Virus record (IMG/VR): IMGVR_UViG_3300023235_000025
Source: a virus
Direction: 5' to 3' (one strand)
DNA length: 62,076 nt
The notes below the pieces were generated by a model. The model was not told the origin of the DNA. It was given only the letters and a program-made list of their open reading frames with translations, and made no database searches. Below, one piece after another: positions 3,524-62,076 of the stretch (its first letter is position 1; each line of letters starts with the position of its first letter). Made by a program: the position numbers and the translations under genes.

Positions 3524-3907
3524 ATGGCCAAATGGACTAGATCATCTATAAAAAAGAGTATGGTTTCTGGGGAAATCGAGGAGTCATACTCTTTATTTGA
3601 AAAACTACTCACTTCCGAGATAGCAAAACCAGTAAGGGAGTTCATGTTTCATCCTAAAAGAAAGTGGAGATCAGACTTTTCTTATCCAGATATCAAGCTG
3701 GCCATAGAAATCGAAGGTGGGGCGAGAACAAGGGGAAGACATACTAGAGGGCAGGGGTTTATTGATGACATGGAAAAGTATAATGCAATGACCGAGCTAG
3801 GATGGCGATTACTAAGGTTTATTCCCCAGGATTTAACAAAATCCACAACAATAGACCAAATTAAGATATGCTACTCCACTCGTATAGTATTTCTACCGCC
3901 TGTGTAA
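3524..3907 (+). CDS. PD-(D/E)XK endonuclease, Vsr/DUF559-like
   Basis: WRSDFSYPDIKLAIEIEGGARTRGRHTRGQGFIDDMEKYNAMTELGWRLLRF. The ATG at 3524 lies immediately after the ssb stop. Confidence 0.55.
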   Translation: MAKWTRSSIKKSMVSGEIEESYSLFEKLLTSEIAKPVREFMFHPKRKWRSDFSYPDIKLAIEIEGGARTRGRHTRGQGFIDDMEKYNAMTELGWRLLRFIPQDLTKSTTIDQIKICYSTRIVFLPPV

Positions 3908-3948
3908 CTGTCCTTTGAAGTTTATTAATATTTATCAACCTTTAACAT

Positions 3949-37090: not shown

Positions 37091-39334
37091 TTATTTTGAT
37101 TTGTTGTTATCCTTACTATTCTCCATTGCTTTTACTGCTTTTTTACCCTCATTTTCTAGTTCTTTTGTAAATGCTCTGCCAGCTTCTTTTATATCTGCTT
37201 CATTTATTCTTGTGGAGGATTTTAGTCTTTCGATCATAAAGTCAGCCTGTTTTTCTTCTCTTTGTAGCTGTGATTTAAGGCTGTATTCCAGTTTGATATT
37301 TTCCCTCTCCATTTCAGCAGTCATAGCGGCACTCTTCTGTTGCTCTTTTGAATTAGCTTCAATATTCTGCATGTCCCTGGCTTGCTTCTCACCTATATTC
37401 TTTTTGACCAGGAAGGCCAAGACCATGGCTTTTTCTTTTATATTATCAATAGTGTCAATGTAGGTGCTGTCTGCCACTGTTATTTGCCCAGAAGATTCAG
37501 CTAATTCTATCCTTCTATTGAGTACCGCTTTCTCTTCATCACTAGGCTTGTCTTCAAATTTAAGAGATAGTTCATGAGCGGTTATATCCCCTAGAGTTTT
37601 CCAGAAGCGTTCACTGTTTATCCCTAGCGCTTTTCTATACACTTTCTCCCCTGCCTCGAATGCATCTTGAAGCCTAATTACTAGACTGTCCGCTATATTT
37701 TCATTTAGGAATTTGGTGCCCTGAACTAAGTGATTCAAGGCGTTGGTTGTCGCTTGATAGGCTAGATTAGCGACCCCGTTTAGTGTTCTTGGATCAGGAG
37801 TGCTTCCGTCTGTTACCTCATTGAATCCTATATTATCCCTGAGTATCCCCATAAAACCATTCACGATTCCGACAAAGTTCGCAATCTCTGAAGCTACCTC
37901 GCTTCGGAGCTGTGTAATTGGTGGTCCACCCATAGGCTCTCCGTCTTCTCTCTTGGATCTATAAGCCATGTCCCCTCTCCTTTTATACATCTCAAGGGCT
38001 TTTCTTGGTACCCATTTTTCTCCATTGTGCCCCAGATTAAGATTTTCCAAAGCGGATAAATCGAAGGCTATCCCAGGAGGAACGGAATTAAGAAGTAGGT
38101 TCATTATTTTTAGCCACGCAATTTGTATTTGGTCAGCTACCGGGATCATTGATTCTATGACTCCGAAGAAATTCATCCTATCCTGCTCAGGAGCTATCAA
38201 ATGCCAAGAAAATGTTGTGTCTTTTGGGTTGTTTTTCGACCTTTTAATATTAGTGCACCGCCCATATTCAAAGATAAAATCAGTGTCAATTATCCACTTG
38301 CCTTTGTATAGGGTTTTTCGGCCATCTCTGACTATCTCACTTTTTTTGTCGGTTTTTCTATTGTAGTCTGTTTTATTGATTTTTTTATTCCCATGACTAT
38401 TGACCCTTTTTTCGTAGGCGGTTTCGTCAAAACTCTTTTTTTCAAACTCAAGAACAAGTATTTTATTATCGTCATTTACCCTCTCTCCATTCGCTGCATA
38501 TCTTCTTGCTCCACCCTTTTGCTTTAATATCTCCTCGATCTCCTCCTCATCGAACTCGCTAGAAGATCTAATATCTTCAATGCTATATGCTCTCACCTCC
38601 CCCATGTACGTAGCATCGGAGAAATCAAACTCCTCGCTGTAATCGCAAATGAACTCTTCCATATTTACATGGCGAATTCGTATCCTGTTGTTCTCGTCAA
38701 AATATTCACGGACACCGCCTACGCCAAAATCAAAAAGATCAGATTTTACCCTATTAAGTATTTGGTCGTATTTGTTGTTTGAGAAGACCATGTTAATTCC
38801 CTTCTCTGCCTCGACTGCTGCTACATGCTTGTAGGAATACTCTTGCTTTATTTTAACCTCTTCTAATGTTCGTGGATCGTCGTCTTTCAGATCGATCATT
38901 GATTCGATATTCGGAACGTCAGATAACTCTTCAAGCATCCTGATTTTTGCTTTCTGCTCGGCAAAGTAATCCTCTTCATCATCCCTAGCTATTGCATCTA
39001 TAGCGGTGGCAACAATGTTAAACCCAATTTTATTGATCTTTCCTAGTGCAATTTTTTTGAACTTAGGGATAATTGGAAGGATGGTGTAATCTAGCGGTTG
39101 AGTACTATCTGCTCGATGGCCGTTTGCGTCTAACGGATCAACTAAGTTTCTATACTTCTCTTCGGACTGCCTACCGTTGGCGTAATTCCTGTACTCTCTG
39201 AACTTTTGATTACCATGATAAAAGATTTTTGATGAAAAAGTCTTACTACTCCCCCATATAGCTTTTGCCGTAAGCAAGTGCCATTCCTTGTCTTTTTTTC
39301 TAGGATCTATTTCGTCTTTTGGAAAATTTATCAT
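37091..39334 (-). CDS. Portal protein
   Basis: 747 aa, immediately downstream of and overlapping the large terminase gene. Confidence 0.7.
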   Translation of the reverse strand: MINFPKDEIDPRKKDKEWHLLTAKAIWGSSKTFSSKIFYHGNQKFREYRNYANGRQSEEKYRNLVDPLDANGHRADSTQPLDYTILPIIPKFKKIALGKINKIGFNIVATAIDAIARDDEEDYFAEQKAKIRMLEELSDVPNIESMIDLKDDDPRTLEEVKIKQEYSYKHVAAVEAEKGINMVFSNNKYDQILNRVKSDLFDFGVGGVREYFDENNRIRIRHVNMEEFICDYSEEFDFSDATYMGEVRAYSIEDIRSSSEFDEEEIEEILKQKGGARRYAANGERVNDDNKILVLEFEKKSFDETAYEKRVNSHGNKKINKTDYNRKTDKKSEIVRDGRKTLYKGKWIIDTDFIFEYGRCTNIKRSKNNPKDTTFSWHLIAPEQDRMNFFGVIESMIPVADQIQIAWLKIMNLLLNSVPPGIAFDLSALENLNLGHNGEKWVPRKALEMYKRRGDMAYRSKREDGEPMGGPPITQLRSEVASEIANFVGIVNGFMGILRDNIGFNEVTDGSTPDPRTLNGVANLAYQATTNALNHLVQGTKFLNENIADSLVIRLQDAFEAGEKVYRKALGINSERFWKTLGDITAHELSLKFEDKPSDEEKAVLNRRIELAESSGQITVADSTYIDTIDNIKEKAMVLAFLVKKNIGEKQARDMQNIEANSKEQQKSAAMTAEMERENIKLEYSLKSQLQREEKQADFMIERLKSSTRINEADIKEAGRAFTKELENEGKKAVKAMENSKDNNKSK

Positions 39335-41367
39335 TGATACATGGGGAATATTTCAGAAATTTCCGTAATTTCCTCTTTATTTGCAACTTTTTGTTTCCTT
39401 ATTCTATCTGCCGCTATCAAACAAATGCCGGAACTCATGGATAAATCGAACTTTGTAGTGTTCGTTATATCAAATTTCAACCAATCAGTCACAAGCTCAG
39501 GGAAATCTACTTGATCTATACAATCTTCGATGTATTCTCTCGTGTGATTAACTATCGAATCGTGAGTCTGATCAGTAGTAGGTATTCCAGGTTCTTTTCT
39601 GTCAGGAAGATGGACCATAAAGTTAGATAGATTTAACCGAAATGGGTTTGACCACTCGAAATATTGAATGATCCCTTTTTTATTATCCTCCATTAGTATT
39701 TGGCACCCGAAGAACCACGCTATTTTTAGAGTGTCCTCATAAAATATTGATGGCTTTTTTGGCCTGAAGCAATAAACCAGTACAAATTTGTCCGATTTAT
39801 TTGGATTCATTGCATCAAACTTATAGAAAAGTACTGTTGATCCATTAGACTTTCGATTATCAACCGTTGTTTTATTATCGAAAGGGTCATTACCGCCTAT
39901 GAACTTGGCTTTATTTCTGGGTACAGGCTTGCTTCCAGCGACCTCTACATTATTCCATTCACCGCTATTGTAATCTACATCTTTGTGTAGTTTAAAATTC
40001 CCGTTCTTAGTGGGGACAAACTTAACCCCCTGCTTAATATCATCAGGGTCTATCCATCTAAGGTCTCCAACTACATACTTAGGGTCTAAAATAGAAAGAA
40101 CATCATACCTGTTCTCTAGCTTCTCTACATCATACTGGCAATCTGTAGACTTTGGCCTGAAGGCGTCTTTAATAGATAATGGGTACTTCCTCTTGTAATC
40201 CGATACGTCTTTTTGATTGTCTTTAAAACCATCAATAGTATTTTGAATAGTTTGAATGTTTTTCGCCCGGTCAGCATTTCCGTATTTATCAAGACTTCTT
40301 GTATCTGCTGCGCTAATGAAATACCTGTACAGCCCGGTAGTTGTGTGCCCGTTTCCGTCTCTATTTGCTGGGTCTGAGTCTTTCCAGAACTTCTCATAAG
40401 TTTCTAATTCTTTAGCTACTTCCTCCACGGTAGAAGTACAAAATTCTTTACCTATTATCCTTCCGGTCATGTTATCCACAAGACACTCTCTGACTACTTT
40501 GTGCCTGTCGTAGATATTTACCTCTTCGGTTTTGAATGCTTCATCAATCAAAATAGCCTGTACTTTTTCTCCATCGACTGCGTAAACTCCAGAGTTCCGG
40601 TAATCAATGCTAGACTCTAATTCTTCCTCAAAATCTTCTACGTTTATATTTTTACCTTTCCTAGAGGTGTGATAGAATCTTATTTCTGATTTTGGTATAG
40701 TTCCTGAACTCGTATCGAATACCGGCCTGAAAAAATGAGGAACCTTTCTGAAACACGACACAACCCCTTTTGAAAAAACCTTTTTAGCGTCGGCACCTGT
40801 CTTGCTCTGTATTGTTCCAAAAGCATTTTTCATTCTGCTTATTGGATCGTAAACGCATATTCCTCCGACGTAAGTTTTCCCGCTTCTACGAGGCCCAACC
40901 TCTACTCTTCCAAAACAACATGGATCATCCACCACATATTTTATATGGTAGAATCTATTCCTATCAAAGTTAAAATAACTTGGTAAACCAACATCTATTC
41001 TCCAATGTGTCAGGTAAAACCAATGAAGCCCCGTTATATAAGTGGCTACCCCATTATTCATGAACCAGAATCCATTTAGCCTTTTAAACCATTGCTCTTG
41101 CCTATAGGACTCGCATTCCTCTATGATAAAATCAGGGTTCTCAGTATTTAAAATAACCCTCTCTTCTTCCCTTCTTTTCTTTTTATACCATTCGGGTTCT
41201 TTTTCTGGCTCCCAATACTGGTCTTTCTTGCTTCTTGACCTTGAAAAAACACCCGTCTTTACCCATTTTTCAGTAAAATGATCCCACACGACTCCCTCTG
41301 GGGGAACCCACCCTGCTAATCCTTCTTGAAGATCTATGGGTGTTGCGTCTGGATGTTTTCTATACAT
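39331..41367 (-). CDS. terL: Terminase large subunit
   Basis: Walker A VGPRRSGKTYVGG. Walker B-like AILIDEAF. 678 aa, first gene of the structural operon. Confidence 0.85.
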   Translation of the reverse strand: MYRKHPDATPIDLQEGLAGWVPPEGVVWDHFTEKWVKTGVFSRSRSKKDQYWEPEKEPEWYKKKRREEERVILNTENPDFIIEECESYRQEQWFKRLNGFWFMNNGVATYITGLHWFYLTHWRIDVGLPSYFNFDRNRFYHIKYVVDDPCCFGRVEVGPRRSGKTYVGGICVYDPISRMKNAFGTIQSKTGADAKKVFSKGVVSCFRKVPHFFRPVFDTSSGTIPKSEIRFYHTSRKGKNINVEDFEEELESSIDYRNSGVYAVDGEKVQAILIDEAFKTEEVNIYDRHKVVRECLVDNMTGRIIGKEFCTSTVEEVAKELETYEKFWKDSDPANRDGNGHTTTGLYRYFISAADTRSLDKYGNADRAKNIQTIQNTIDGFKDNQKDVSDYKRKYPLSIKDAFRPKSTDCQYDVEKLENRYDVLSILDPKYVVGDLRWIDPDDIKQGVKFVPTKNGNFKLHKDVDYNSGEWNNVEVAGSKPVPRNKAKFIGGNDPFDNKTTVDNRKSNGSTVLFYKFDAMNPNKSDKFVLVYCFRPKKPSIFYEDTLKIAWFFGCQILMEDNKKGIIQYFEWSNPFRLNLSNFMVHLPDRKEPGIPTTDQTHDSIVNHTREYIEDCIDQVDFPELVTDWLKFDITNTTKFDLSMSSGICLIAADRIRKQKVANKEEITEISEIFPMYQ

Positions 41368-42235: not shown

Positions 42236-42237
42236 GT

Positions 42238-42252
42238 GTTACCTGCTGGTGC
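42238..42252. repeat. Left inverted repeat GTTACCTGCTGGTGC flanking the C5-MTase gene
   Basis: Pairs with 43456-43470. The same motif flanks the MTase at 1451..2266. Confidence 0.85.
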
Positions 42253-42280
42253 GGTATTGATAATAACAAAACTTTGAACA

Positions 42281-43456
42281 ATGACGAAACTTAGTAATAA
42301 TATTTTTTTGAGCGATGGCAAATTAGGCCATAGCCTAAAACACGGATCTCTTTTCTCTGGAATAGGTGGTTTTGATTTAGCAGCTCAATGGATGGGATGG
42401 GAGAATATCTTCCATTGCGAATGGAACGAGTTTGGTCAAAAAATACTAAAACATTACTGGCCTAAAGCAATATCTTATGAAGACATTACCAAAACAGACT
42501 TCTCTATTCATAGAGGAAAAATCGACATCCTTACAGGAGGTTTCCCCTGCCAACCTTATTCATCAGCAGGTAAAAGACTTGGTAAGGAAGACGATAGACA
42601 TCTCTGGCCGCAAATGCTTAGAGCAATTCGAGAGATTCAGCCCAGGTATATCGTGGGAGAAAACGTTTATGGACTCACTAATTGGAATGGAGGATTGGTT
42701 TTCAACGAGGTGCAAACTGACTTGGAAAATGAAGGGTACAAAGTACAACCGTGTATTCTTCCAGCTGCTGCCGTCAACGCTCCCCATAGAAGAGATAGAG
42801 TTTGGTTTGTGGCCTACGCCAACGAGCGTACAACAGGACCATCCCGAACGAGTGGAAAAACTGAAAGCGACTGGAGCAAAAACAATGATGAGCAGAGCTG
42901 CGGGAGAAAACAGACCGAACAGCATAATAGATGCAGCAATGTTTTACAACTTACTTCCAACCCCAGTAGTAATGGACACAAATTGCGGAGACCTGGAGAA
43001 AATAGACAAACGAAGAGAGAGAGCAAAAGCAAAGGGGATAAACGGGAACGGCTTTGGAATGACGATTGGCGAAATGGCAAACAGGAAAATGTTACCGACA
43101 CCTGCAATGAGAGATTACAAAGGAGGAAACTCGATGGAACACTTGACAAGAAAGCCAAAAAGCAAAGGGAACAGCCATCAGGATCAGCTACCGAACGCCA
43201 TCAAATTACAGACTGGGAGCAATGGCCAACTCAATCCCCAATTTGTGGCCGAAATGATGGGTTTTCCAACCAACTGGACGGAATTACCTTTCCTAAATGG
43301 CGACAAGAATCAATTAAAGGATATGGAAACGCAATAGTACCGCAAGTTGCATATCAAATCTTTAAAGCTCTTATGGCAACGGAAGCAAAAGAAGGGAGAA
43401 AAAAAATATTATTACGGGCTGATAAACACGAACCTTCAAGTTTAGCACAAACTTAG
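42281..43456 (+). CDS. dcm: DNA (cytosine-5)-methyltransferase (frame A)
   Basis: Motif I LFSGIGGFD, motif IV GGFPCQPYS, motif VI VGENV, motif VIII PHRRDRVWFVAY, motif X GYGNAIVPQVA. The interior of about 150 codons is low complexity. Confidence 0.85.
   Translation: MTKLSNNIFLSDGKLGHSLKHGSLFSGIGGFDLAAQWMGWENIFHCEWNEFGQKILKHYWPKAISYEDITKTDFSIHRGKIDILTGGFPCQPYSSAGKRLGKEDDRHLWPQMLRAIREIQPRYIVGENVYGLTNWNGGLVFNEVQTDLENEGYKVQPCILPAAAVNAPHRRDRVWFVAYANERTTGPSRTSGKTESDWSKNNDEQSCGRKQTEQHNRCSNVLQLTSNPSSNGHKLRRPGENRQTKRESKSKGDKRERLWNDDWRNGKQENVTDTCNERLQRRKLDGTLDKKAKKQREQPSGSATERHQITDWEQWPTQSPICGRNDGFSNQLDGITFPKWRQESIKGYGNAIVPQVAYQIFKALMATEAKEGRKKILLRADKHEPSSLAQT
42477..43337 (+). CDS. Nested +1-frame ORF (286 codons) with MTase target-recognition/motif-IX-like sequence
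   Basis: LWPTPTS, LLPTPVVMD, MLPTPAMRDYKGG and LNPQFVAEMMGFPTNWTEL, lying entirely inside the dcm ORF. Status unresolved: separate product, frameshift segment or split enzyme. Confidence 0.45.
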   Translation: MKTLPKQTSLFIEEKSTSLQEVSPANLIHQQVKDLVRKTIDISGRKCLEQFERFSPGISWEKTFMDSLIGMEDWFSTRCKLTWKMKGTKYNRVFFQLLPSTLPIEEIEFGLWPTPTSVQQDHPERVEKLKATGAKTMMSRAAGENRPNSIIDAAMFYNLLPTPVVMDTNCGDLEKIDKRRERAKAKGINGNGFGMTIGEMANRKMLPTPAMRDYKGGNSMEHLTRKPKSKGNSHQDQLPNAIKLQTGSNGQLNPQFVAEMMGFPTNWTELPFLNGDKNQLKDMETQ

Positions 43457-43470
43457 CACTTGCAGGTAAC
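43456..43470. repeat. Right inverted repeat GCACTTGCAGGTAAC flanking the C5-MTase gene
   Basis: Starts at the last base of the stop codon. Reverse complement is GTTACCTGCAAGTGC. Confidence 0.85.
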
Positions 43471-43512
43471 TGCTGGGTGTATGGTTAGTGCGACTTAATT
43501 AAAATAAATATT

Positions 43513-43761: not shown

Positions 43762-43844
43762 TTGTTGCTAACTCGTTTATAAACGCATTACACAATTCAA
43801 CACATCAAAAAATCAAATCTTAAATTCAATAGAAAAACCAGATG
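43761..43844 (+). repeat. Diverged third copy of the 80-bp upstream module
   Basis: attgttgctaactcgtttataaacgcattacac...cttaaattcaatagaaaaaccagATG aligns with 8968-9047 and 60735-60814 at roughly 70% identity by eye. Confidence 0.6.
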
Positions 43845-44564
43845 GCTTTAAAATTCAGTACAATAAACCACGATTACAGAAAAGAGAACAATATTTCATG
43901 CAACGAATATGTGTTGTGTGACATGATTTATTTTCTTTCAAGACATCCAAACTCAAAACATCCAGGATGGTGCTATATGTCCCGACAGAGGATGGCAGAT
44001 GAAATGGGAGTGTCAAAGGTGGCTACCATAGGAATGATTTCTAGATCGGAAGAAAAAGGGCTAGTTTACAAAGACCCTGACACTAAGTTTTTAAAAACTA
44101 CTTCCAAATGGAATGAATGTTATGGATTACCTGATTTAAAAGACTCGGTAAAGAAAGTTAACCAGCAATCGGTAAAGAAACTTAACCGAGGTGGTAAAGA
44201 AAGTTTACCGATTATCGGTAAAGAAAGTTTACCCTATATTAAAGATATTAATATTAATAATGATATAAAGCAAATTTCTAATGAGAAATCTTTGGAAGAA
44301 ATTGAAAAAGAGAAGCACAATGACATTTTCAGGTCAATGTTCTCCAGTCAGATGTGGATAGAATCGCTCTCTATGAGGTGGAAAAAGAATGTAAAAGAGG
44401 TTCAAGCACACGTAGATGTATTTAGAAGGGATTGTATTGATAAAGGGGATTACAAAAAGACAGAAAAGGACGCCAAATCACACTTTGTTAATTGGACAGA
44501 GAAAGTAAGCCCTATCTCATCGGTAACTAAAAGAGTAATATTTAAAGGAAATAACAATGAGTAA
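43842..44564 (+). CDS. Putative replication initiator (winged-helix N-terminus) containing the iteron array
   Basis: 240 aa. wHTH-like MSRQRMADEMGVSKVATIGMISRSEEKGLV. Lies directly upstream of and overlaps dnaB. Internal peptide repeats are encoded by the iterons. Confidence 0.6.
   Translation: MALKFSTINHDYRKENNISCNEYVLCDMIYFLSRHPNSKHPGWCYMSRQRMADEMGVSKVATIGMISRSEEKGLVYKDPDTKFLKTTSKWNECYGLPDLKDSVKKVNQQSVKKLNRGGKESLPIIGKESLPYIKDININNDIKQISNEKSLEEIEKEKHNDIFRSMFSSQMWIESLSMRWKKNVKEVQAHVDVFRRDCIDKGDYKKTEKDAKSHFVNWTEKVSPISSVTKRVIFKGNNNE
44146..44233. repeat. Four 18-bp iterons YGGTAAAGAAASTTWACC
   Basis: Copies start at 44146, 44170, 44192 and 44216 (spacings 24/22/24). Copies 3 and 4 are palindromic, GGTAAA-N5-TTTACC. 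An AT-rich tract follows at 44234-44290. Confidence 0.85.
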
Positions 44565-46575: not shown

Positions 46576-46797
46576 ATGAGCAAACAATCAGAAATTAAAG
46601 CTCATTTGCTTTCAGGACAGCCTATAACAGGATTATTAGCTATAGATTTGTACGGAGTTTATAGGTTATCCTCTACAATAAACAGGATAAGGAATCAGGG
46701 TGTAAAGGTAAAGACATCAATGATAATTGGAAGTGATGGGAAGACTATACATGCCAAATACTGGATTCAAATTAAAGATAGAAAAATAAATCAATAA
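46576..46797 (+). CDS. Small HTH protein (HTH_39-like)
   Basis: SGQPITGLLAIDLYGVYRLSSTINRIRNQGVKVKT. Confidence 0.5.
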   Translation: MSKQSEIKAHLLSGQPITGLLAIDLYGVYRLSSTINRIRNQGVKVKTSMIIGSDGKTIHAKYWIQIKDRKINQ

Positions 46798-46800
46798 TTA

Positions 46801-46831
46801 TTTGTTCTTTAAGAAATAATTACTACATTTG
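46801..46831 (+). promoter_or_regulatory. Bacteroidota-type promoter TTTG-N19-TACATTTG
   Basis: TTTG at 46801-46804, a 19-nt spacer, TAnnTTTG at 46824-46831. Confidence 0.65.
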
Positions 46832-46860
46832 TAAGGAAGGTTACGGTGTAGTAATTATTT
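46814..46860. promoter_or_regulatory. Perfect 14-bp inverted repeat overlapping the -7 box (candidate operator)
   Basis: AAATAATTACTACA at 46814-46827 and TGTAGTAATTATTT at 46847-46860, with a 19-nt spacer. Confidence 0.75.
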
Positions 46861-50436: not shown

Positions 50437-50928
50437 ATGACAAATAAACTAATACTCGGTGATTGCTTGGAAAAGATGAAAATGATCCCAGACGGAAGTA
50501 TAGACTTAGTGTTCTCAGATCTACCGTATGGGAAAACAAAAAATAAATGGGACGTCGTTATAGATCCAGTCAAGCTTTGGGTAGAAGTGTGGAGGGTGGC
50601 CAAACCAAACGCAGCCGTATTATTTTTTGGACAGGATAAGTTTTCGGCAATGATGATGCTGAGCGACCCTAATCATCGATATAATATTATATGGGAAAAG
50701 ACCACAGTAACAAACCCCTTCAATGCTAAAAAGATGCCTATGAGGTGCCATGAAGATATAATGGTATTCTACAGGTCTTTACCAACCTATAATCCCCAAA
50801 TGACCCACGGGCACCAAAGAAAGGTATCATCAGCGATACATAAAAGGAATAGCAAGAAAACCACAAACTACGGGGATCATAAAGCCACCTCTTACGATAG
50901 TACCTCCAGATACCCTAGGAGTGTATAA
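50437..50928 (+). pseudogene. Truncated beta-class DNA methyltransferase (N-terminal half only)
   Basis: Motif IV DLVFSDLPYG and ...SRYPRSV are followed by a stop. The AdoMet-binding half (HPTQKP...FxGSGTT) is absent from all three downstream frames. Confidence 0.7.
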
Positions 50929-51005: not shown

Positions 51006-51329
51006 ATGTGTATTAAAGGTGGTATTGGGTATTGGCAAAAAGTAGGCAGGGATGACCCAAGTAAATTTAATGCCATGGCTGATTTAGAACACGAGCTAAC
51101 CGACGATAAAGGGGAACCAGTGACAATGCTGAAAGATCAAAGCAAAGGCGGTGGATTGGTATTCTTAAAACCACACCCTGATTATCCAGAAATAAAAGAC
51201 ATCTCAATAATGAAAGGGAGAGAACCTAAACCATTAACTGATTGTAATGGATTTTGTGGAACTAATCTGTTCGGTAAAAAGAACGAGACTGAGGATGAGA
51301 TAAATTTTCCTAAAGACAATTTGCAATGA
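51006..51329 (+). CDS. Hypothetical protein
   Basis: 107-aa ORF. Confidence 0.5.
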   Translation: MCIKGGIGYWQKVGRDDPSKFNAMADLEHELTDDKGEPVTMLKDQSKGGGLVFLKPHPDYPEIKDISIMKGREPKPLTDCNGFCGTNLFGKKNETEDEINFPKDNLQ

Positions 51330-51518: not shown

Positions 51519-51549
51519 CTATGTAATTATTGGGGTAATAATTACATTA
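51519..51549. repeat. Palindrome ATGTAATTATT-N5-AATAATTACAT
   Basis: 11-bp perfect arms. A near-identical element lies at 61531-61561. Confidence 0.85.
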
Positions 51550-51609
51550 CGCTATCAGTCAATACGTTACATAATGTAAAAGAGAAACGCTGTATTGAGA
51601 GCCATAGCA

Positions 51610-51700
51610 TTTACCGCTTATCAGTTTATTATACCGTTCATGTAACTTTGGTTACTGGTTTAAATCTTTCATTCTTTGGGCTTACTTAAATGAAAAGAAA
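51610..51700 (+). promoter_or_regulatory. Upstream module U1 (TTACCGCT-type, diverged)
   Basis: tttaccgcttatcagtttattataccgttcatgtaac. Confidence 0.5.
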
Positions 51701-51838
51701 ATGTATATAGGGAAAACAATTAAGAGTAAAGACGGGAGAATACTTGTAGTTAGGGAGATAATCTCAAAAAGAAGCTGTGTAGTATCTTATGGCTTTGATA
51801 CAAAGGGTAAAGATGTAGTAGGGGTGATAAGGCTTTAA
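51701..51838 (+). CDS. Small hypothetical protein (45 aa)
   Basis: ORF between module U1 and the terminator at 51858. Confidence 0.35.
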   Translation: MYIGKTIKSKDGRILVVREIISKRSCVVSYGFDTKGKDVVGVIRL

Positions 51839-51857
51839 ATGACCAAAACACTAATTC

Positions 51858-51881
51858 AGGGCTTTAATTAGCCCTTTTTTT
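51858..51881 (+). terminator. Intrinsic terminator
   Basis: AGGGCT-ttaatt-AGCCCT followed by a T7 run. Confidence 0.7.
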
Positions 51882-52132
51882 ATGTCTAAAATAACTAAGG
51901 GTTTAATCGCAATCTTATCAAAATGCAAATTATAGATAATATTATCGATTATTAAAGTGTTTCCCTGGTAATATTGGAGACAAAAACAGATCTTTATTTT
52001 AATAAGGCTGAATAATTCTATAAATAATGCAATCGCTAATTATTGGGAATGTTTAAAATGTTAAGCTATATTTATACGATGATGGCATAACCACCCCAAT
52101 ATTCCTATTCTTTTTTTATTAATTTAGGTTTT

Positions 52133-52483
52133 ATGAAAATCAATAAATATCTAATCTACTACAATACTTTTAGCGCTATTAAAGAATTACTATCTACCTA
52201 TCCTGGATTAAAACTCCCTCAATTGATCGTATTTGGGGCTATTATAGCTATTTCAGAGCATAACAGTGTAGTTAGTCAATATGATGTAACACTACTTAAT
52301 ACTAGCTTGAATAAAGCTTTATCTAAATCAACAACTCAAAGACACATTAACCGGTTAGAATCAGAGGGATTCATAGTTAAAACTAAAAACCCTCAATACT
52401 TTTCAAGATCCTACATCACATTAACAAAAGAAGGTCTTTTGCTTAAGTCCCGTTTATCTTCTCTACTTAATAGATCTTTCTAA
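52133..52483 (+). CDS. Winged-helix transcription regulator (MarR-like)
   Basis: LNKALSKSTTQRHINRLESEGFIVKTKNP...ITLTKEG. Confidence 0.55.
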   Translation: MKINKYLIYYNTFSAIKELLSTYPGLKLPQLIVFGAIIAISEHNSVVSQYDVTLLNTSLNKALSKSTTQRHINRLESEGFIVKTKNPQYFSRSYITLTKEGLLLKSRLSSLLNRSF

Positions 52484-52540
52484 CTCTTAATATTTGGCCT
52501 GACTTGGTATGTGAGGTGGAGGTAAGGGTTTTCGGGCATA

Positions 52541-52649
52541 GTTTACCGCTTATCCTTTCATTTTACCGCTTGTGTAAAAGCGTTAGTTCCTTACTTTTCA
52601 TCCTGCCATATTTGTTTAAATCATTTAAAAAACTAAAGTTATAAACGAA
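52541..52649 (+). promoter_or_regulatory. Upstream module U2 with tandem TTACCGCT boxes
   Basis: gTTTACCGCTTATCctttcatTTTACCGCTTGTGTAAAAGCGTT. 52549-52584 is identical to 53759-53794. Confidence 0.65.
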
Positions 52650-52883
52650 ATGAAAAAATTCAAAACATTCCGAATGTTTATCTCCGCTGCTACAGAGGAG
52701 ATAAAAGATTCTGGAGTTGTCTGCGTTGGCTGGCAACTCCAGAAAGATGGAGAGCAGGAAAACTGCTTCCACTATTTTCATAGCTCAAGTGAGCTATCAA
52801 GATACATTGGGTTAAAAGGCATCGAGTATGCCGAAATCCATACAAAATATAAAGAAGGTAGAATTTACTTTTTTTATGCCTAA
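52650..52883 (+). CDS. Hypothetical protein
   Basis: 77-aa ORF behind module U2. Confidence 0.5.
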   Translation: MKKFKTFRMFISAATEEIKDSGVVCVGWQLQKDGEQENCFHYFHSSSELSRYIGLKGIEYAEIHTKYKEGRIYFFYA

Positions 52884-52889
52884 TTCCCT

Positions 52890-52987
52890 GGCTTACCGCT
52901 CATCACTTTTTAAGACCGCTGGTGTAAAAACGTTTCTTTGCTATCTTGTTTCTCCTTAATATTGTTTCATACTAAACAAAGAAAACC
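52890..52987 (+). promoter_or_regulatory. Upstream module U3
   Basis: gCTTACCGCTCATC...GACCGCTGGTGTAAAAACGTT. 52948-52973 is identical to 53808-53833. Confidence 0.65.
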
Positions 52988-53200
52988 ATGGTAGTTACAA
53001 AAAAAATAAACGATAATTACAATATCACTGTCAAAATTGACAGTGGCAGAATAAGTGATTGGGACTACGATCCCAAACCTGAGGCAGAGATGCCAGTGGC
53101 ATTTCTGAAGAAAGTTAAGGAAACAATTTTGGGCATTGCAATAGAAAACAATGCCGAAATTTGGGCGGTACACGCTCCTTTGTTTATAATAAAAGAATGA
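52988..53200 (+). CDS. Hypothetical protein
   Basis: 70-aa ORF behind module U3. Confidence 0.5.
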   Translation: MVVTKKINDNYNITVKIDSGRISDWDYDPKPEAEMPVAFLKKVKETILGIAIENNAEIWAVHAPLFIIKE

Positions 53201-53215
53201 GGCATTATTTAATTG

Positions 53216-53250
53216 CAGGGAGGAGGATAATTCTTCCCTGTTTTCTTTTT
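53216..53250 (+). terminator. Intrinsic terminator
   Basis: CAGGGAGG, a 9-nt loop, then CTTCCCTG, followed by TTTTCTTTTT. Confidence 0.65.
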
Positions 53251-53280
53251 AATCTATCAACAAATTAAACTATAAACATT

Positions 53281-53697
53281 ATGTATAACAAGAAAAGATT
53301 AGATCCGACCACATTTGAAGGTCGGATGCATTTTGAAGAGTGTGCATTAAGAACACTTTCCTTAATAATAAAAATAAAAGAGAAATCTGATGTATTAGGC
53401 AGCTTCGACTGCTACATTAAAACAGGATTCGAACAAAGTGTTAAGCTCTCAGAGGGCGACACATTTGTCAAAAAATCAGGTGGTCTACCAAAAAAATATG
53501 TAGATGTGGCAACTTTGCCACTACATATTTTAAGACAGATAAAATATCTTCCAATGGGGGAATATAGTAACGGGAAGTTACTTGCCTATGTAGGTGAGTA
53601 TATTCCCCACAACCATAAAGGAGGGAATTTAGTGCAGTACAAAGGCGAACCACTATTCGCCAAAGAATTAAATTATTTTTTTAAAGTCTGCTGTTAA
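53281..53697 (+). CDS. Hypothetical protein
   Basis: 138-aa ORF. Confidence 0.5.
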   Translation: MYNKKRLDPTTFEGRMHFEECALRTLSLIIKIKEKSDVLGSFDCYIKTGFEQSVKLSEGDTFVKKSGGLPKKYVDVATLPLHILRQIKYLPMGEYSNGKLLAYVGEYIPHNHKGGNLVQYKGEPLFAKELNYFFKVCC

Positions 53698-53707
53698 TAA
53701 TATTTGC

Positions 53708-53740
53708 CCAGGCTCTCTTCGGAGGGCTTGGCTTTTTCTT
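53708..53740 (+). terminator. Intrinsic terminator with UUCG tetraloop
   Basis: CCAGGCTCTC-ttcg-GAGGGCTTGG (10 pairs including 2 G-U), followed by CTTTTTCTT. Confidence 0.75.
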
Positions 53741-53755
53741 ACACCAAACAAAAAA

Positions 53756-53848
53756 CCTCTTATCCTTTCATTTTACCGCTTGTGTAAAAGCGTTTCTTTA
53801 CTACCTCGTTTCTCCTTAATATTGTTTCATACTTAAACAATCAAAACC
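53756..53848 (+). promoter_or_regulatory. Upstream module U4 (mosaic of U2 5' box and U3 3' part)
   Basis: 36 nt are identical to U2 and 26 nt are identical to U3. Confidence 0.65.
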
Positions 53849-54130
53849 ATGCAAATTACAAGGGAAGAATTTCAAAATATGATAGAGAATTATGGTCATC
53901 ATATGAGTGTGAGAGTGCCTGTAACTGATAAACTTACAGCCGAAACTATCATGAGAACAGTGCTAAATAATGGAATGCCGTATAACCCATATGGAACACA
54001 TTCTCAGCAAATGGGAATGTCTAGTAATATGGAAAACGCTAAAACAGCGATGAGTTTCGTAAAAAGAGCAGCGACAGTCTACTCTAACGTATTTCAACAC
54101 ACCACAGGGGATTATACTATAATTGATTAA
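53849..54130 (+). CDS. Hypothetical protein
   Basis: 93-aa ORF behind module U4. Confidence 0.5.
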   Translation: MQITREEFQNMIENYGHHMSVRVPVTDKLTAETIMRTVLNNGMPYNPYGTHSQQMGMSSNMENAKTAMSFVKRAATVYSNVFQHTTGDYTIID

Positions 54131-54132
54131 TC

Positions 54133-54342
54133 ATGAGTATTAAAGAGGTAATTCAGTCGGATAACTGGGTATTGACTAACGTAATGCAGGGGTCAGGATC
54201 ATACCGAGTTGATGCTAAAAAAAGGTTCCCTTCATCTGGAGATAACTTTTTCAGCAAATGGGGGAGTAAAAAATACATTGACTCCTTAGTAATGTCCCGA
54301 TATGGGAAGAAAACAAGTGATTTAAATTCATTTTCATACTAA
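54133..54342 (+). CDS. Hypothetical protein
   Basis: 69-aa ORF. Confidence 0.5.
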   Translation: MSIKEVIQSDNWVLTNVMQGSGSYRVDAKKRFPSSGDNFFSKWGSKKYIDSLVMSRYGKKTSDLNSFSY

Positions 54343-54357
54343 AAAACAAACTAAATC

Positions 54358-54537
54358 ATGAAAAAGATACTAATTAGAAAAGGCAAGAAAATAAAAGGGT
54401 TTGTAGGGCGCAATTCAGACGGGTTTTATTATGCGTTTGGTAGGCCTTCGCAAGATAGTTATATCTCATTTACCTGTGAGTCTATTGAACAGGGTATTGC
54501 TAGAATAGAAATGCATACCAATGAAGGGAACATTTAA
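54358..54537 (+). CDS. Hypothetical protein (59 aa)
   Basis: ORF below the track cutoff that fills the 54343-54546 gap. Confidence 0.4.
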   Translation: MKKILIRKGKKIKGFVGRNSDGFYYAFGRPSQDSYISFTCESIEQGIARIEMHTNEGNI

Positions 54538-54546
54538 ACTAAAAAC

Positions 54547-54771
54547 ATGGAATTAATACAAACAACTCCTGAGTTAGCCTTTTCAATTTTAAAGGTAGGT
54601 AACAGAAAGATAAAAGCTACAAAAGGTAATGGTATATTTACCGTTAATTCAATGAATATAAATAATATGACATTCAGATTATCCTTCATGAAAGGGGGAG
54701 AAACGCAATGTAACTGCGAAGACTATGTATTTTATATTCAGGTTCCTAAAAATTCAAAACAAGTTTATTAA
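54547..54771 (+). CDS. Hypothetical protein
   Basis: 74-aa ORF. Confidence 0.5.
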   Translation: MELIQTTPELAFSILKVGNRKIKATKGNGIFTVNSMNINNMTFRLSFMKGGETQCNCEDYVFYIQVPKNSKQVY

Positions 54772-54788
54772 TTCTACTTACCTCTTAC

Positions 54789-54817
54789 CCCTGTTATTAG
54801 TTTAACAGGGTTTTTTT
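54789..54817 (+). terminator. Intrinsic terminator
   Basis: CCCTGTTA-ttagtt-TAACAGGG followed by a T7 run. Confidence 0.75.
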
Positions 54818-54970
54818 ATGTCCTTACATTTGGCCGGATTTAGTGTATAACCACCCATAAAGTATTTTTGCCGTTCGTGTATTACAATTTTCAAACATTA
54901 AAACTTATGCCTATATTTAGATTCAATTAAGTACTACACAAACAAACAAACAAACTAAAATCAAATACCT

Positions 54971-55282
54971 ATGAAAACGCTAATTGCAATTGTCGGGTTA
55001 TTTGCTATAATGGCATTTATCCCTATCGAATTTACTGGAGATGGACCGCCGGATAAACCAGACATTGAAGCCTCAGACTGTTTTAATTACGATGTGGCTC
55101 CTGTTTTCTACCAATCCTCTATTCCTATTATTGCTTCAATGTTTATGCTAAGCGAAAAGGGAGAAAAGGCTAAAAATGAAAACTTCTTTACAAATTATCC
55201 TGTACCATATAAATTTAATGTACAGAATGACATATTAAGAAGCCAGATAGCAACCAATTATAAAGCAAGGGAATTGAACTGA
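54971..55282 (+). CDS. Secreted or membrane-anchored hypothetical protein
   Basis: N-terminus MKTLIAIVGLFAIMAFIPIEF. Confidence 0.5.
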   Translation: MKTLIAIVGLFAIMAFIPIEFTGDGPPDKPDIEASDCFNYDVAPVFYQSSIPIIASMFMLSEKGEKAKNENFFTNYPVPYKFNVQNDILRSQIATNYKARELN

Positions 55283-55318
55283 TAAAACGACAAATATCAA
55301 TTTCTGTAAATACAAAAA

Positions 55319-55350
55319 ATACCCGTACTAGACATACGGGTATTTTTTTT
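55319..55350 (+). terminator. Intrinsic terminator (A-run / stem / T-run, potentially bidirectional)
   Basis: aaaaaATACCCGTA-ctagaca-TACGGGTAtttttttt. Confidence 0.8.
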
Positions 55351-55365
55351 ACCCAATTTCCAGGT

Positions 55366-55461
55366 CTTTTACCACTCATAAGGTATTAAAACCGATCCTG
55401 TAAAAACGGTTTGATTAAAGTGTTTAAAATCTTAAATTTACTTAACATTAAAAACAAGACC
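55366..55461 (+). promoter_or_regulatory. Upstream module U6 with candidate TTTG-N19-TAAATTTA promoter
   Basis: cTTTTACCACTCAT...AAACCGATCCTGTAAAAACGGTTTG, then a 19-nt spacer and TAAATTTA. Confidence 0.6.
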
Positions 55462-55722
55462 ATGACAAAGAAAGAATTAAACAGAGACATCAAAAGATTA
55501 GGAGCTGAAATTTACCGAATGAGCTTCGAGGATCAAGACAAGTATTTTGAATACCTAGACAAAGAAGCCAGAAAAGAATTTATTAGGCTTTTCTATTCGG
55601 ATCAAGATTTTGAATACATGAACCTTAACAGCGTTAAGTTAATGCTAAGGATGAATTTAAAAAACAGATTTATAGACCTTCACACGTTCGGTCTAATGAT
55701 TAATGAAAGAGATTTAATTTAA
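55462..55722 (+). CDS. Hypothetical protein
   Basis: ATG at 55462. The track start at 55411 is a TTG inside the module. Confidence 0.5.
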   Translation: MTKKELNRDIKRLGAEIYRMSFEDQDKYFEYLDKEARKEFIRLFYSDQDFEYMNLNSVKLMLRMNLKNRFIDLHTFGLMINERDLI

Positions 55723-55742: not shown

Positions 55743-56633
55743 ATGAACACCTATTCAAAATATTGCCCTAATGTATTCGTCGCAAAATGTGACGAACAAC
55801 ACGAAAAAGGAAGTTTAATCACCATAACCACTAAATACGGCAAAGAGGTTGAAAATGAAATTTACAATTATATTGGAAAAACAAAAGACGGGTTCTTCCT
55901 GTATTCTGTAGTCAGGACAGACGGAACGACCGCACAAACTAGAGCTGAAGCGAAAGCGGCAAAATTACTTGGTTACTCCTCAAATGCTGAAAAAAGATCA
56001 AATAAACATTACGAAGCATCTAAAAAGAATTCGGGTTTCTTAGCCCTTGGAGAGCCTATAAAAATTGGGCACCATAGCGAAAGGAGACATAGAAAATTAA
56101 TAGAAGATAATTGGGATCAGTTGGGCAAAAGTGTAGCAGAGAGTGAAAAAGCAAAGGATTATGAAAGAAGGGCGGAATACTGGAAAGATAAAGCCAGTAT
56201 AATAAATTTATCAATGCCTGAAAGCTTAAATTATTTTGAATTCAAACTACAAGAGGCGAAGGATAAACACCAATTTTTGAAAGACAACCCAAAAGAAAGA
56301 AGGCATTCAATGTCTTTACAGTACGCAAATAAAGAGGTGAAAGAATTAGATAAAAAGGTTGAAACGGCTATTTATCTTTGGGGAGAAGAAGACGAAATAA
56401 AATTATTAAACGAAGAAAAAAGAGAAAAGGCAGAAGCAAACTACTGCAAAAGTAAAAAGAAAAAGGACGCAGTAAAGGATCATCTTGGTTTCTTCGCCTT
56501 TAATAATGACCAACTTAAGAAGGGATACGGAAAAATAAAACCAGAAATAGAAGACGGTGAAAAAGTGGTACACGTGGGCCACGGTTTATATATTCCAAAA
56601 TCCAGGTTAGACTCATTTTTAAAAACCCTTTAA
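55743..56633 (+). CDS. DUF3560-like protein
   Basis: GEPIKIGHHSERRHRKLIE...RRAEYWKDKA resembles the DUF3560 motif seen on plasmids and phages, from memory only. Confidence 0.5.
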   Translation: MNTYSKYCPNVFVAKCDEQHEKGSLITITTKYGKEVENEIYNYIGKTKDGFFLYSVVRTDGTTAQTRAEAKAAKLLGYSSNAEKRSNKHYEASKKNSGFLALGEPIKIGHHSERRHRKLIEDNWDQLGKSVAESEKAKDYERRAEYWKDKASIINLSMPESLNYFEFKLQEAKDKHQFLKDNPKERRHSMSLQYANKEVKELDKKVETAIYLWGEEDEIKLLNEEKREKAEANYCKSKKKKDAVKDHLGFFAFNNDQLKKGYGKIKPEIEDGEKVVHVGHGLYIPKSRLDSFLKTL

Positions 56634-56644
56634 AACAAACTAAA

Positions 56645-57160
56645 ATGAAACTACAACCATTAAATAAAACCGCTCTTTCTAGTCAATTGTATAATTTGAC
56701 AGGAAAATTTTTATCAGGTAGGGACTTTATCAGAAATGATGATGAAGTCATAGAAATAAGCACAGGGAAAAAATTCTATCTTCCAACACAAGAAGAGGAA
56801 GAGATTTTTAAAGCTGAGGAAGCCATCCGGCAAGAAGAGGAGAAAAAAGGAAAAAAACATAGACACGATAATAAAACCTATCCTTTTATTGATTATTTCA
56901 ACCATAAAAGATGGGTTACGGGACTTGATCACGCAAAAACAAAAGGATTTCCGAAAACAGAAATGTGTAAAGATTCTTATTGGCACTTTTTGGAATGCGT
57001 TCCACCAAAGAGAATGCATAAAGGTGCTTTTATATGTGGGGAGCCCTACACCCATAACGGACAAGGGGAAGCCATTTATTTGTGTGGAATTAAGGAAGGA
57101 AATAAATACTTTGCTAAGTACGGAACATTAAAACAATTTGATTCAAATAAACTATTTTAA
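56645..57160 (+). CDS. Hypothetical protein
   Basis: 171-aa ORF. Confidence 0.5.
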   Translation: MKLQPLNKTALSSQLYNLTGKFLSGRDFIRNDDEVIEISTGKKFYLPTQEEEEIFKAEEAIRQEEEKKGKKHRHDNKTYPFIDYFNHKRWVTGLDHAKTKGFPKTEMCKDSYWHFLECVPPKRMHKGAFICGEPYTHNGQGEAIYLCGIKEGNKYFAKYGTLKQFDSNKLF

Positions 57161-57164
57161 AACT

Positions 57165-57890
57165 ATGAAATACTCATTGAGACAAGATTTAGAAGCCTTA
57201 TCAATAGAAGGAAACAAAGCGTTTTTACCAAAAGAACCTTTAAGCGATTACGCAGAGTTAAAAAAAGCACTAACAAAGGCATGTGGTAAATACAAAAGCA
57301 ATTCATTTGAATTTCCCTATCCTGCAAAAGCAGTAATTGAATCGCTGAAAACCGGAAAAGTGATTGATTTCAAAAAAGAATTTCAATTATTTCATACAGA
57401 CAAGCCAGTAGCGGGGCAAATGATGAATGAAATTATCGGATACCCGAAAACCATATTAGAACCAAGCGCAGGACATGGGCACTTAATTGATGAATTAATA
57501 GCAGTATATCCCGATTCAAAAATTGATGCCGTGGATCTTTCAGAGTTAAATTTCTCGATTCTTAAAGATAAATACAAGGACAATCCAAATATAAACCTGA
57601 TACATGGCGACTACCTGGATTTTGTGCCCGGTAAAAAATATGATTTAATTTTTGCTAACCCTCCATTTAGTAAAAATCAAGACATAGACCATGTTTTAAA
57701 AATGGTTTCTGAAAAAGAGGATCAAGGGCAAATAATATCTATAATGTCTACATCCTGGACGTTTGGAAATCAAAAAAAGCAGGTGGAATTTAGGGAATTC
57801 GCAGAGGAAAATTTCATAATACGAACCAATGAAAACGGGGCGTTTAAATCTTCTGGTACAATGGTCAGTACTGTTTTAATAACAGGTTAA
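57165..57890 (+). CDS. N6-adenine DNA methyltransferase, gamma-class
   Basis: Motif I ILEPSAGHGHL precedes motif IV IFANPPFS. ATG at 57165, after the upstream stop. Confidence 0.85.
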   Translation: MKYSLRQDLEALSIEGNKAFLPKEPLSDYAELKKALTKACGKYKSNSFEFPYPAKAVIESLKTGKVIDFKKEFQLFHTDKPVAGQMMNEIIGYPKTILEPSAGHGHLIDELIAVYPDSKIDAVDLSELNFSILKDKYKDNPNINLIHGDYLDFVPGKKYDLIFANPPFSKNQDIDHVLKMVSEKEDQGQIISIMSTSWTFGNQKKQVEFREFAEENFIIRTNENGAFKSSGTMVSTVLITG

Positions 57891-57982: not shown

Positions 57983-58123
57983 ATGAAAAAGCTAATCATT
58001 ATTACATTGTTCATTTATGTCCTAATCATAGGGATGATATTTAAAATCGGGGACATAGGGATAAGTAACCCATACCTAGAAGAACATAGTTTTGTTCAGG
58101 AATTTACAAATCTTCTAAAGTAG
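57983..58123 (+). CDS. Small membrane protein (46 aa)
   Basis: MKKLIIITLFIYVLIIGMIF... Confidence 0.35.
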   Translation: MKKLIIITLFIYVLIIGMIFKIGDIGISNPYLEEHSFVQEFTNLLK

Positions 58124-58225
58124 TCCATCACCTTAATTTACCAATCATGTAAATATAGTTTGTTTAAAATGCTAAATAGACTATATTTATTAAACAAAGA
58201 AAGAGAGATTTAAACCAAAGAAATC

Positions 58226-61511: not shown

Positions 61512-61627
61512 AATTTAAAGACAGCTTTTTCTATGTAATTATTAAGGCGATAATTACATTAGTCATCATTTACGGGTGCTGGTGGACTTTCATTAATGCG
61601 CTTCTTTGGATTCTTAAAACAACTTAA
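61508..61627 (+). CDS. Tiny membrane ORF (39 aa)
   Basis: MKFKDSFFYVIIKAIITLVIIYGCWWTFINALLWILKTT. ATGA overlap with the upstream gene. Contains the palindrome copy. Confidence 0.3.
   Translation: MKFKDSFFYVIIKAIITLVIIYGCWWTFINALLWILKTT
61531..61561. repeat. Second copy of the ATGTAATTAT...ATAATTACAT palindrome
   Basis: ctatgtaattatt and ataattacatta are shared with 51519-51549. Lies inside a 39-codon ORF. Confidence 0.8.
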
Positions 61628-61921: not shown

Positions 61922-62076
61922 ATGGCACAAGACACAAGAAATTTAAAATTATCAAACGTAAAATCAGTTGAAAATATATCTGACGAGTGGGTTGATTTGT
62001 GGCAACAAGTTGAGTTATGGTATGGAGACATTCAGAAAAAAGAGACTGGACAGCAGCTATTGGAAAGGCTTCAATC
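61922..62076 (+). CDS. 5' part of the wrap-around 61-aa hypothetical ORF
   Basis: ATG at 61922. Continues in frame into 1..158. Confidence 0.5.
   Translation, partial: MAQDTRNLKLSNVKSVENISDEWVDLWQQVELWYGDIQKKETGQQLLERLQ
61950..62076. repeat. Terminal overlap, identical to 1-127
   Basis: Same comparison as for 1-127. Confidence 0.95.

Follow-up and report, generated by a model that had tools for sequence, protein, structure and literature searches.

The sequence analysed here, IMG/VR virus record IMGVR_UViG_3300023235_000025, is a stretch of 62,076 nucleotides (hereafter the window) in which one regulatory element, called the box in the following, is repeated in front of a series of small genes. 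Each copy forms part of a unit that comprises the box, a core promoter, a leader and one or more open reading frames (ORFs). Eight units (U1 to U8) are present, all of them on the + strand and six of them between positions 51609 and 55461. The evidence inclines us to the reading that these units are promoters poor in the upstream -33 element, activated by a host regulator of the LytTR family and packaged as recombining cassettes.

The original prediction had placed the box in six intergenic regions, and all six locations were recovered. The strict pattern ACCGCTYATC-N10-ACCGNT-NN-TGTAAAARCG matches only at 52545, 52895, 53755 and 55371 (U2, U3, U4 and U6), where chance would give 0 matches (100 shuffles). 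A position-weight scan, which yields 0.05 matches per 62 kb in shuffled windows, also recovers U1 (51609) and the degenerate U5 (54846) and adds two weaker copies that had not been listed, U7 (58116) and U8 (3871). Units are numbered such that the first ACCG starts at unit position 5; the distal repeat then spans positions 5-14 (ACCGCTYATC) and the proximal one positions 25-37 (ACCGYTYRTGTAA). The box consists of these two direct repeats, ACCGYTYAT(C) and ACCGYTYRTGTAA, a word of 9-13 nt repeated at a distance of 20 bp from start to start. Alignment of 30 units from eight lineages gave the common consensus ACCgcTcATc-N10-ACCGtTcgTGTAA, and a relative of the phage carries boxes at syntenic places in the same register.

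U1 (51609-51700) contains half-sites at 51613-51622 (ACCGCTTATC) and 51633-51645 (ACCGTTCATGTAA), a -33 TTTG at 51647-51650 and the -7 sequence ATTCTTTG at 51671-51678, which is 4 nt off the register of the other units. It precedes ORF45 (51701-51838), after which a terminator is located (51858-51883, -9.8 kcal/mol). The gene for a winged-helix protein of 116 amino acids, which resembles MarR proteins, follows at 52133-52483. U2 (52541-52649, half-sites 52545-52554 and 52565-52577, -7 element CATATTTG at 52607-52614) leads ORF77 (52650-52883), and U3 (52891-52987, half-sites 52895-52904 and 52915-52927, -7 element TAATATTG at 52957-52964) leads ORF70 (52988-53200), which is followed by a terminator (53215-53241), ORF138 (53281-53697) and a further terminator (53708-53731) about 20 nt upstream of U4. 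U4 (53751-53848, half-sites 53755-53764 and 53775-53787, -7 element TAATATTG at 53817-53824) is a chimera with its left part from U2 and its right part from U3. The identities on which this view had been based are exact, with 36 nt shared by U2 and U4 (52549-52584 and 53759-53794) and 26 nt shared by U3 and U4 (52948-52973 and 53808-53833). The ORFs downstream of U4 (53849-54130, 54133-54342, 54358-54537 and 54547-54771) end in a terminator at 54789-54810.

The degenerate box of U5 (54846-54970) has the half-sites ACCACCCATA (54850-54859) and GCCGTTCGTGTAT (54870-54882) and is followed by the -7 element TATATTTA (54912-54919), ORF103 (54971-55282) and an inverted repeat with 17-nt arms and a T-run (55311-55351). 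U6 (55367-55461, half-sites 55371-55380 and 55391-55403, -33 TTTG, -7 element TAAATTTA at 55433-55440) precedes ORF86 (55462-55722), a DUF3560 gene (55743-56633), ORF171 (56645-57160) and a methyltransferase gene (57138-57890) whose product carries an NPPF motif; the operon expected behind U6, with its DUF3560 and methyltransferase genes, is therefore present. U7 (58116-58225) is a weak copy with a proximal half-site ACCAATCATGTAA at 58140-58152, a -33 TTTG and the -7 element TATATTTA at 58182-58189; its counterpart in the relative L162 (16856) bears a full box. U8 (3871-3948) has half-sites at 3875-3884 and 3895-3907 (ACCGCCTGTGTAA), a -33 TTTG and a weak -7 element, AACCTTTA, at 3937-3944. 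Neither Pfam nor PHROGs put a name to any of the small cargo ORFs.

The 8-mer TAnnTTT[G/A] is found exactly at unit positions 67-74 in U2 to U8, and it is shifted by 4 nt in U1. At the fixed offset, seven of the eight window units match at least five of the six specified bases, with U1 (ATTCTTTG) matching four. Counting the units of the window and of the relative together, 13 of 15 have the element at positions 67-74, compared with a background of 1.8% per position. In Flavobacterium psychrophilum the sigma-A box TAnnTTTG covers -12 to -5, with a median length of 24 nt for the 5' untranslated region (UTR) (Guerin et al., PMC9723704). Since the octamer occupies positions 67-74, the transcription start is predicted near unit position 79, which would give leaders of 17-47 nt and would place the distal repeat at about -74 to -65 and the proximal repeat at about -54 to -42. 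For U8 the ATG at 3949 coincides with the predicted start site, and the transcript may therefore be leaderless. A TTG at -33 with a spacing of 17-21 nt is seen in only five of the 30 units of the whole family; among the window units, U6, U7 and U8 have it, and so does U1 within its shifted register. Judged by their sequence, the units look like promoters without a good upstream hexamer, in which the tandem site takes its place.

With the -7 element in a fixed register and terminators after most units, the units look like the proposed cassettes of promoter, leader, ORF and terminator. All five intrinsic terminators named earlier were found: the scan detected four (51858, 53215, 53708 and 54789), and the fifth, at 55311-55351, is visible as an inverted repeat. 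Their folding energies range from -9.8 to -16.7 kcal/mol, with z scores of -2.4 to -4.6. They are separate, non-homologous hairpins, which are located before U4, U5 and U6 and are absent before U2 and U3.

The cassettes are substrates for recombination, because natural deletions end inside them and because U4 is chimeric. The contig L128, 99.98% identical to the window elsewhere, is devoid of the segment from about 53001 to 53774 with ORF70 and ORF138, and its single remaining cassette corresponds to U3 up to GTGTAAAA and to U4 beyond it, so that the crossover fell within a stretch of 8 identical bases in the proximal repeat. In L160, the 3.4-kb block of L162 that carries the DUF3560 and methyltransferase genes is missing, and here the junction is located in the similar leaders (about 20 nt) of two cassettes. 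The original prediction had spoken of a recombining set of genes, and these junctions bear it out. It had also suggested that related phages would show an exchange of cargo behind the module: in the relative at 85-96% identity, several different genes indeed stand behind syntenic boxes that are in register.

These data also bear on the idea that the box is an RNA hairpin or attenuator, or the target of a site-specific recombinase as in integron-type cassette arrays. A stem of 5 bp can be formed in U2 and U4 (-5.9 kcal/mol), the crossover in L128 used only 8 identical bases of the proximal repeat despite the 26-nt identity nearby, and the ORF at 7074-8006 is a weak match to a phage integrase family (E 1.7e-4). 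The stem, however, which the original prediction had included in the box beside the two direct repeats, did not stand up as the repeats did: at least four of its five pairs can form in only two of the 30 related units, it is absent in the other 28, and Rfam gave no match in the window. The predicted transcription start is downstream of the box, and the constant distance between box and -7 element speaks for a function in transcription. Furthermore, the junction in L160 is located in the leader, outside the box. The junctions fall at differing points of the cassettes, and therefore ordinary recombination at short homologies fits better than a dedicated site. Altogether, we regard an RNA element or a recombinase site as extremely improbable.

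The MarR-like protein encoded at 52133-52483 was the original prediction's candidate for binding the box, together with the initiator. In Pfam it scores 20.5 and 20.9 bits against MarR and MarR_2, below the gathering thresholds of 24.6 and 27, whereas the structure model (pLDDT 79.5) shows a winged helix flanked by further helices, like solved MarR structures, and essentially all of the top 50 Foldseek matches in the PDB are MarR-family proteins, a few being labelled only as transcriptional regulators (TM-scores 0.50-0.68). The label MarR-like, used already in the original prediction, is thus justified for the fold but not by Pfam. A weak match to Staph_reg_Sar_Rot (E 0.038) was also obtained. 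The family is small, with 27 representatives or clusters among 1.8 billion proteins. In L160 and L162, which are 99-100% identical otherwise, the MarR-like proteins clearly differ (49% and 64% identity to the window protein), and the boxes are identical.

According to this first alternative, the MarR-like protein is made from a sigma-A promoter without a box, binds the box and activates or shuts off the boxed promoters, giving a cascade from early to middle genes. The predicted fold would agree with this, and so would the arrangement of the loci. Where DNA downstream of the gene is available, a box is present in 21 of 22 loci, the first one 48-140 nt past the stop codon and usually with more boxes beyond it, and this extends to homologues with 35% identity. 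Among 156 loci without the gene only three have a box, two of which are fragments of the same phage. As a rule, the gene is preceded by a complete promoter, TTG-N17-21-TAnnTTT[GA], but by no box; in the window the candidate is TTG-N21-TATATTTA at 52043-52074 (+ strand). Against it stands that the box remains constant when the recognition helix of the family varies, and that its repeats run in the same direction and show little dyad symmetry, whereas MarR dimers normally read palindromes: when six positions were tested for dyad symmetry, the outermost two were often complementary in the proximal repeat and none were in the distal repeat. The association in 21 of 22 loci had made this protein the leading candidate for binding the box; it was demoted once the box was found without the gene and in host chromosomes, as described below, and we now hold it to be an unlikely binder.

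A second conserved sequence precedes the MarR-like gene. This element of 25 nt (GTGTTTCCCTGGTAATATTGGAGAC, 51957-51981, + strand) follows the pattern GTGTTTYnnCSGnnAWWWTYGGAGAC with a fixed length and is located about 150-180 nt upstream of the gene in seven loci with six distinct regulator types (besides the window, L162 at 9837, L170 at 5813, L171 at 4266, L172 at 438, L173 at 339 and L176 at 720). In many cases, AAAGTRCAAT or TGCAAC..GTTGCA palindromes stand in front of it. The element could be an operator or promoter for the MarR-like gene. The protein may regulate its own gene through this element, or it may modulate a host factor by analogy to SarA with AgrA.

A search of viral contigs with the strict two-repeat pattern found the box at 26 loci, most of them with further boxes close by. 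No member of the MarR-like family was detected in the DNA fetched for these 26 loci, even with hmmsearch at E<=1, and in the pattern scan of the whole viral collection only one contig contained the family; both results speak against the MarR-like protein as the binder. (A scan of viral contigs with a shorter motif gave 119 single matches, which we regard as mostly due to chance.) The loci without the gene belong to at least two other phage groups. In group A (L186, L187, L197 and seven similar viral loci), two boxes are arranged back to back about 62 nt apart and face divergent operons; repeats of TTTTGTCCG are located between the two boxes, whose -7 elements conform to TAnnTTGY. In group B (L189, L191, L195, L198, L199, L200, L207 and L208), three boxes share one intergenic region of about 700 nt beside a terminase gene of the same family; each box is followed 22 or 33 nt further on by TTTGGCAYG, for which a sigma-54-like reading was considered, and by repeats of AACGACAACAAACGG.

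These groups also allow other phage proteins to be weighed as binders, namely an HTH_39 winged-helix protein (46576-46794) and the DUF7833 initiator (43842-44564). In ten group A contigs, an HTH_39 homologue is encoded at a distance of about 1.7 kb from the boxes, and this phage and its relatives have one as well; direct repeats would be a suitable target for a winged-helix protein that acts as a monomer. In the group B loci, however, no homologue was seen. For the initiator, the connection is the iterons at 44145-44233. These are four units of 23-24 bp (TCGGTAAAGAAAGTTTACCGA, internally palindromic) within the DUF7833 gene and upstream of the DnaB helicase gene, and they probably constitute the replication origin. 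The original prediction had noted that the half-site recurs in them, and this is correct for the heptamer TTTACCG but for nothing wider; one of the junctions between iterons reads GTTTACCGATTATC. As palindromic units they differ from the box, and none of them belongs to the window's eight sites that score 8 or more with the position-weight matrix of the box. Since no phage protein accounts for the sites in host chromosomes, binding by either of these two proteins seems very unlikely to us.

In bacterial genomes, a search for the proximal repeat with an in-register -7 element gave 49 matches, 40 of which are in Bacteroidota. A distal repeat at a phasing of 21 bp accompanies 18 of these 40, compared with a background of 0.3%, and none of the nine others. 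A second bacterial scan, carried out with the 21-bp phasing, found 72 loci, about 40 of them in Chitinophagaceae and Spirosomataceae and about 19 in Firmicutes. In Chitinophagaceae and Spirosomataceae, the sites are located upstream of genes for outer-membrane proteins of about 820 amino acids with OMP_b-brl_3 and CarboxypepD_reg domains; examples are found in Chitinophaga (L262, L265, L269, L273, L275, L294 and L299), Runella (L218-L224 and L305) and Nibrella (L238 and L289). These sites appear to form an undescribed regulon. A site in Emticicia (L178), which has exactly the phage register, precedes recA. The Bacteroidota SOS boxes (GGA-N5-TCC, CTAA-N5-TTAG and TTAC-N5-GTAA; PMC8565304) were considered as well, and they do not fit the box despite its position upstream of this recA gene. 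Because the element is also located before host genes in Bacteroidota chromosomes, we interpret the box as a cis-element of the host which is shared by several groups of phages. The same finding counts against the MarR-like protein, and together with the boxes in the 26 viral contigs and those beside LytTR genes in Firmicutes it weakens the earlier suggestion that this protein or the initiator is the cognate binder.

A regulator class with a matching binding site exists. LytTR proteins bind a pair of repeats, each of 9-11 nt, that are 11-13 nt apart (PMC4847170), and in the case of AgrA the repeats are located directly upstream of suboptimal promoters (PMC4227749). The 20 bp from start to start in the phage box correspond to a 9-mer plus 11 nt, and the direct-repeat anatomy is found in the eight window units as well as in the 30 units of the eight lineages. 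For AlgR the 9-mers CCGTTCGTC and CCGTTCATC have been described (PMC4064291), and the site oligonucleotide for YehT/BtsR (yjiY) contains ACCGCTTA and ACCACTCA (PMC4847170). All four words occur verbatim in phage and host units. The YehT motif reportedly reads ACC[G/A]CT[C/T]A, a formula that goes back to Kraxenberger and colleagues in 2012. In Firmicutes the box and the regulator are found together: in L271, L272, L282 and L285 the gene directly downstream of the box encodes a LytTR protein (two response regulators and two stand-alone proteins), and 15 of the 23 box loci in this phylum have a LytTR ORF within the 8-kb locus. By our estimate, this is far more than would be expected in random 8-kb windows.

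No LytTR domain was detected among the 77 phage ORFs scanned. Since the phage has no recognisable LytTR domain and the box also stands before host genes, a LytTR-type regulator of the host is favoured; activation, in turn, is favoured by the position of the site, which precedes the core promoter without an operator overlapping the core, and by the poor -33 element. In such a model, each unit would be a portable cassette built on a Bacteroidota sigma-A core promoter. A host LytTR-type activator would bind both repeats and bring the host RNA polymerase to promoters that are poor in the -33 element, and in this way the eight units of small variable genes, together with the DUF3560-methyltransferase operon, would be tied to the signalling state of the host. 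The cassettes, consisting of box, core promoter, leader and often an upstream terminator, in addition provide short homologies at which recombination deletes, inserts and reshuffles the cargo. The repeats, their fixed register to the -7 element, the terminators, the recombinant genomes and the distribution of the box were observed directly, whereas we infer the transcription starts, the identity of the binder and the choice between activation and repression.

Several points weigh against a host LytTR-type activator. The phage boxes have a phasing of 20 bp and most host sites one of 21 bp, a contrast to be read with the fact that the phasing was fixed by the patterns used in the scans. No LytTR gene was seen in the Bacteroidota host loci or in any phage locus, so that the link between gene and site comes from Firmicutes only. 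The adjacency of the MarR-like gene and the box in 21 of 22 loci is left unexplained by a host factor. LytTR proteins can also repress, and the effect could therefore be repression. Finally, the host is placed in the Bacteroidota only through the promoter type and a large-terminase identity of 28.5%, the nearest terminases all being from phages of Flavobacteriia (Flavobacterium, Cellulophaga, Tenacibaculum and Maribacter).

A wider version of the model can be imagined, in which several unrelated groups of Bacteroidota phages plug their most variable accessory cassettes into the host LytTR pathway that controls the conserved OMP_b-brl_3 barrel of Chitinophagaceae and Spirosomataceae, a possible phage receptor. 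The phage would then read the envelope or nutrient state of the cell and time the expression of these genes accordingly, and the MarR-like protein, whose gene always precedes the first cassette, would be a modulator of the host regulator, as SarA is for AgrA. We consider this wider version doubtful.

The array is part of a complete circular assembly of about 61.9 kb (circular or terminally redundant), since the two ends of the window are identical over 127 nt (1-127 and 61950-62076) and two near-identical contigs span the end-to-end junction. The genes for the large terminase (39331-41367, - strand), the portal protein (37091-39334) and tail proteins were identified with PHROGs. From about 41.5 kb across the end of the window to 12.4 kb the genes are on the + strand, and the cassette array is located inside this non-structural region. 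At the DNA level, none of the GenBank phages searched is close to the window. Near-identical contigs (L126-L129) and a relative at 85-96% identity (L130 and L162) were retrieved; the relatives found through the DUF3560 protein (56-71% identity; L120-L125 and L131-L159) have no box and carry other intergenic repeats instead.

Some further features of the window were observed. The genes for an N6_N4 methyltransferase (1451-2266) and a C5 methyltransferase (42281-43456) are each preceded by GTGTTACCTNCTGGTGCG, and a partial inverted copy, CACTTGYAGGTAAC, is located after both genes (1342-1359 and 2267-2282; 42236-42253 and 43457-43472); by their flanking sequences, these two genes look like bracketed cassettes. 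The third methyltransferase ORF (50437-50928) covers only the N-terminal 163 amino acids of an N6_N4 methylase and is below the Pfam threshold. It is followed by a separate ORF of 107 amino acids (51006-51329), an arrangement that is the same in the near-identical contig L126, and the pair looks like a split or decayed methyltransferase gene. Similar AT-rich hairpins (TGTAATTATT ... AATAATTACA) are located in three + strand intergenic regions (51521-51550, 61530-61560 and about 46810-46860). A tandem duplication of 261 nt with 95% identity is found within the gene for a virion protein of 2183 amino acids (17940-18456), and a 105-nt repeat in 2.4 copies within a tail-fibre-like gene (31312-31560).

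The timing of gene expression in Bacteroidota phages is almost undescribed, and with 30 aligned units from eight lineages and 26 additional viral contigs a promoter class can now be defined for them. The data suggest that a hypervariable set of phage genes is under the control of a host regulator of the two-component type rather than of the phage alone. In addition, they predict a previously undescribed LytTR-type regulon, the OMP_b-brl_3 genes, in Chitinophagaceae and Spirosomataceae, and natural recombinants with junctions resolved to the base are available for these cassettes. In the literature searched, we found no description of such an arrangement of phage cassettes.

Several known systems share part of these properties. 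Among LytTR promoters, those of AgrA (agr P2/P3), YehT/BtsR (yjiY), YpdB (yhjX) and AlgR likewise combine a weak promoter with a tandem site directly upstream of it, in which two direct repeats, 9-11 nt long, are separated by about 11-13 nt. The half-site words of the phage are near-identical to CCGTTC[G/A]TC of AlgR and to ACC[G/A]CT[C/T]A, the formula reported for YehT. Unlike these promoters, the phage units with their putative LytTR sites are borne by a virus, are present in eight copies, have Bacteroidota-type promoters and lack a cognate LytTR gene nearby. At agr P2/P3, a tandem LytTR site is also paired with a small winged-helix protein of the MarR/SarA group, SarA, which here serves as an analogy only.

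A poor upstream hexamer with a conserved activator site at or upstream of it is also typical of the Mu promoter Pm, which is activated by Mor centred at -43.5, and of the T4 middle promoters with MotA/AsiA (PMC4390567, PMC2988021). These promoters time a block of phage genes and depend on an activator encoded by the phage, whereas the site described here is of a host regulator class and is also found in host chromosomes.

As gene-shuffling cassettes, the units resemble the promoter-early stem-loop (PeSL) cassettes known from T4-type phages (Arbiol et al. 2010, PMC2839356; Comeau et al. 2014, PMC4122927). In both cases, intergenic copies of a promoter motif for the host RNA polymerase precede small, functionally uncharacterised genes of a variable region, and insertions, deletions or replacements between close relatives end inside the cassettes, as in L128 and L160. 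PeSLs often have a terminator hairpin attached, whereas the terminators of the phage units are separate and are missing before U2 and U3. The phage group and the host phylum differ as well, and the core is of the Bacteroidota -7 type instead of the sigma-70 -35/-10 type. In PeSLs the core promoter and the hairpin are conserved; here the conserved part is the upstream tandem site for a transcription factor. Because of the different promoter type, this conserved factor site and the hairpin outside of the repeat, the units are not members of the PeSL class; the idea behind that class, that regulatory cassettes are a substrate for gene shuffling, is extended by them to another phage lineage and another host phylum.

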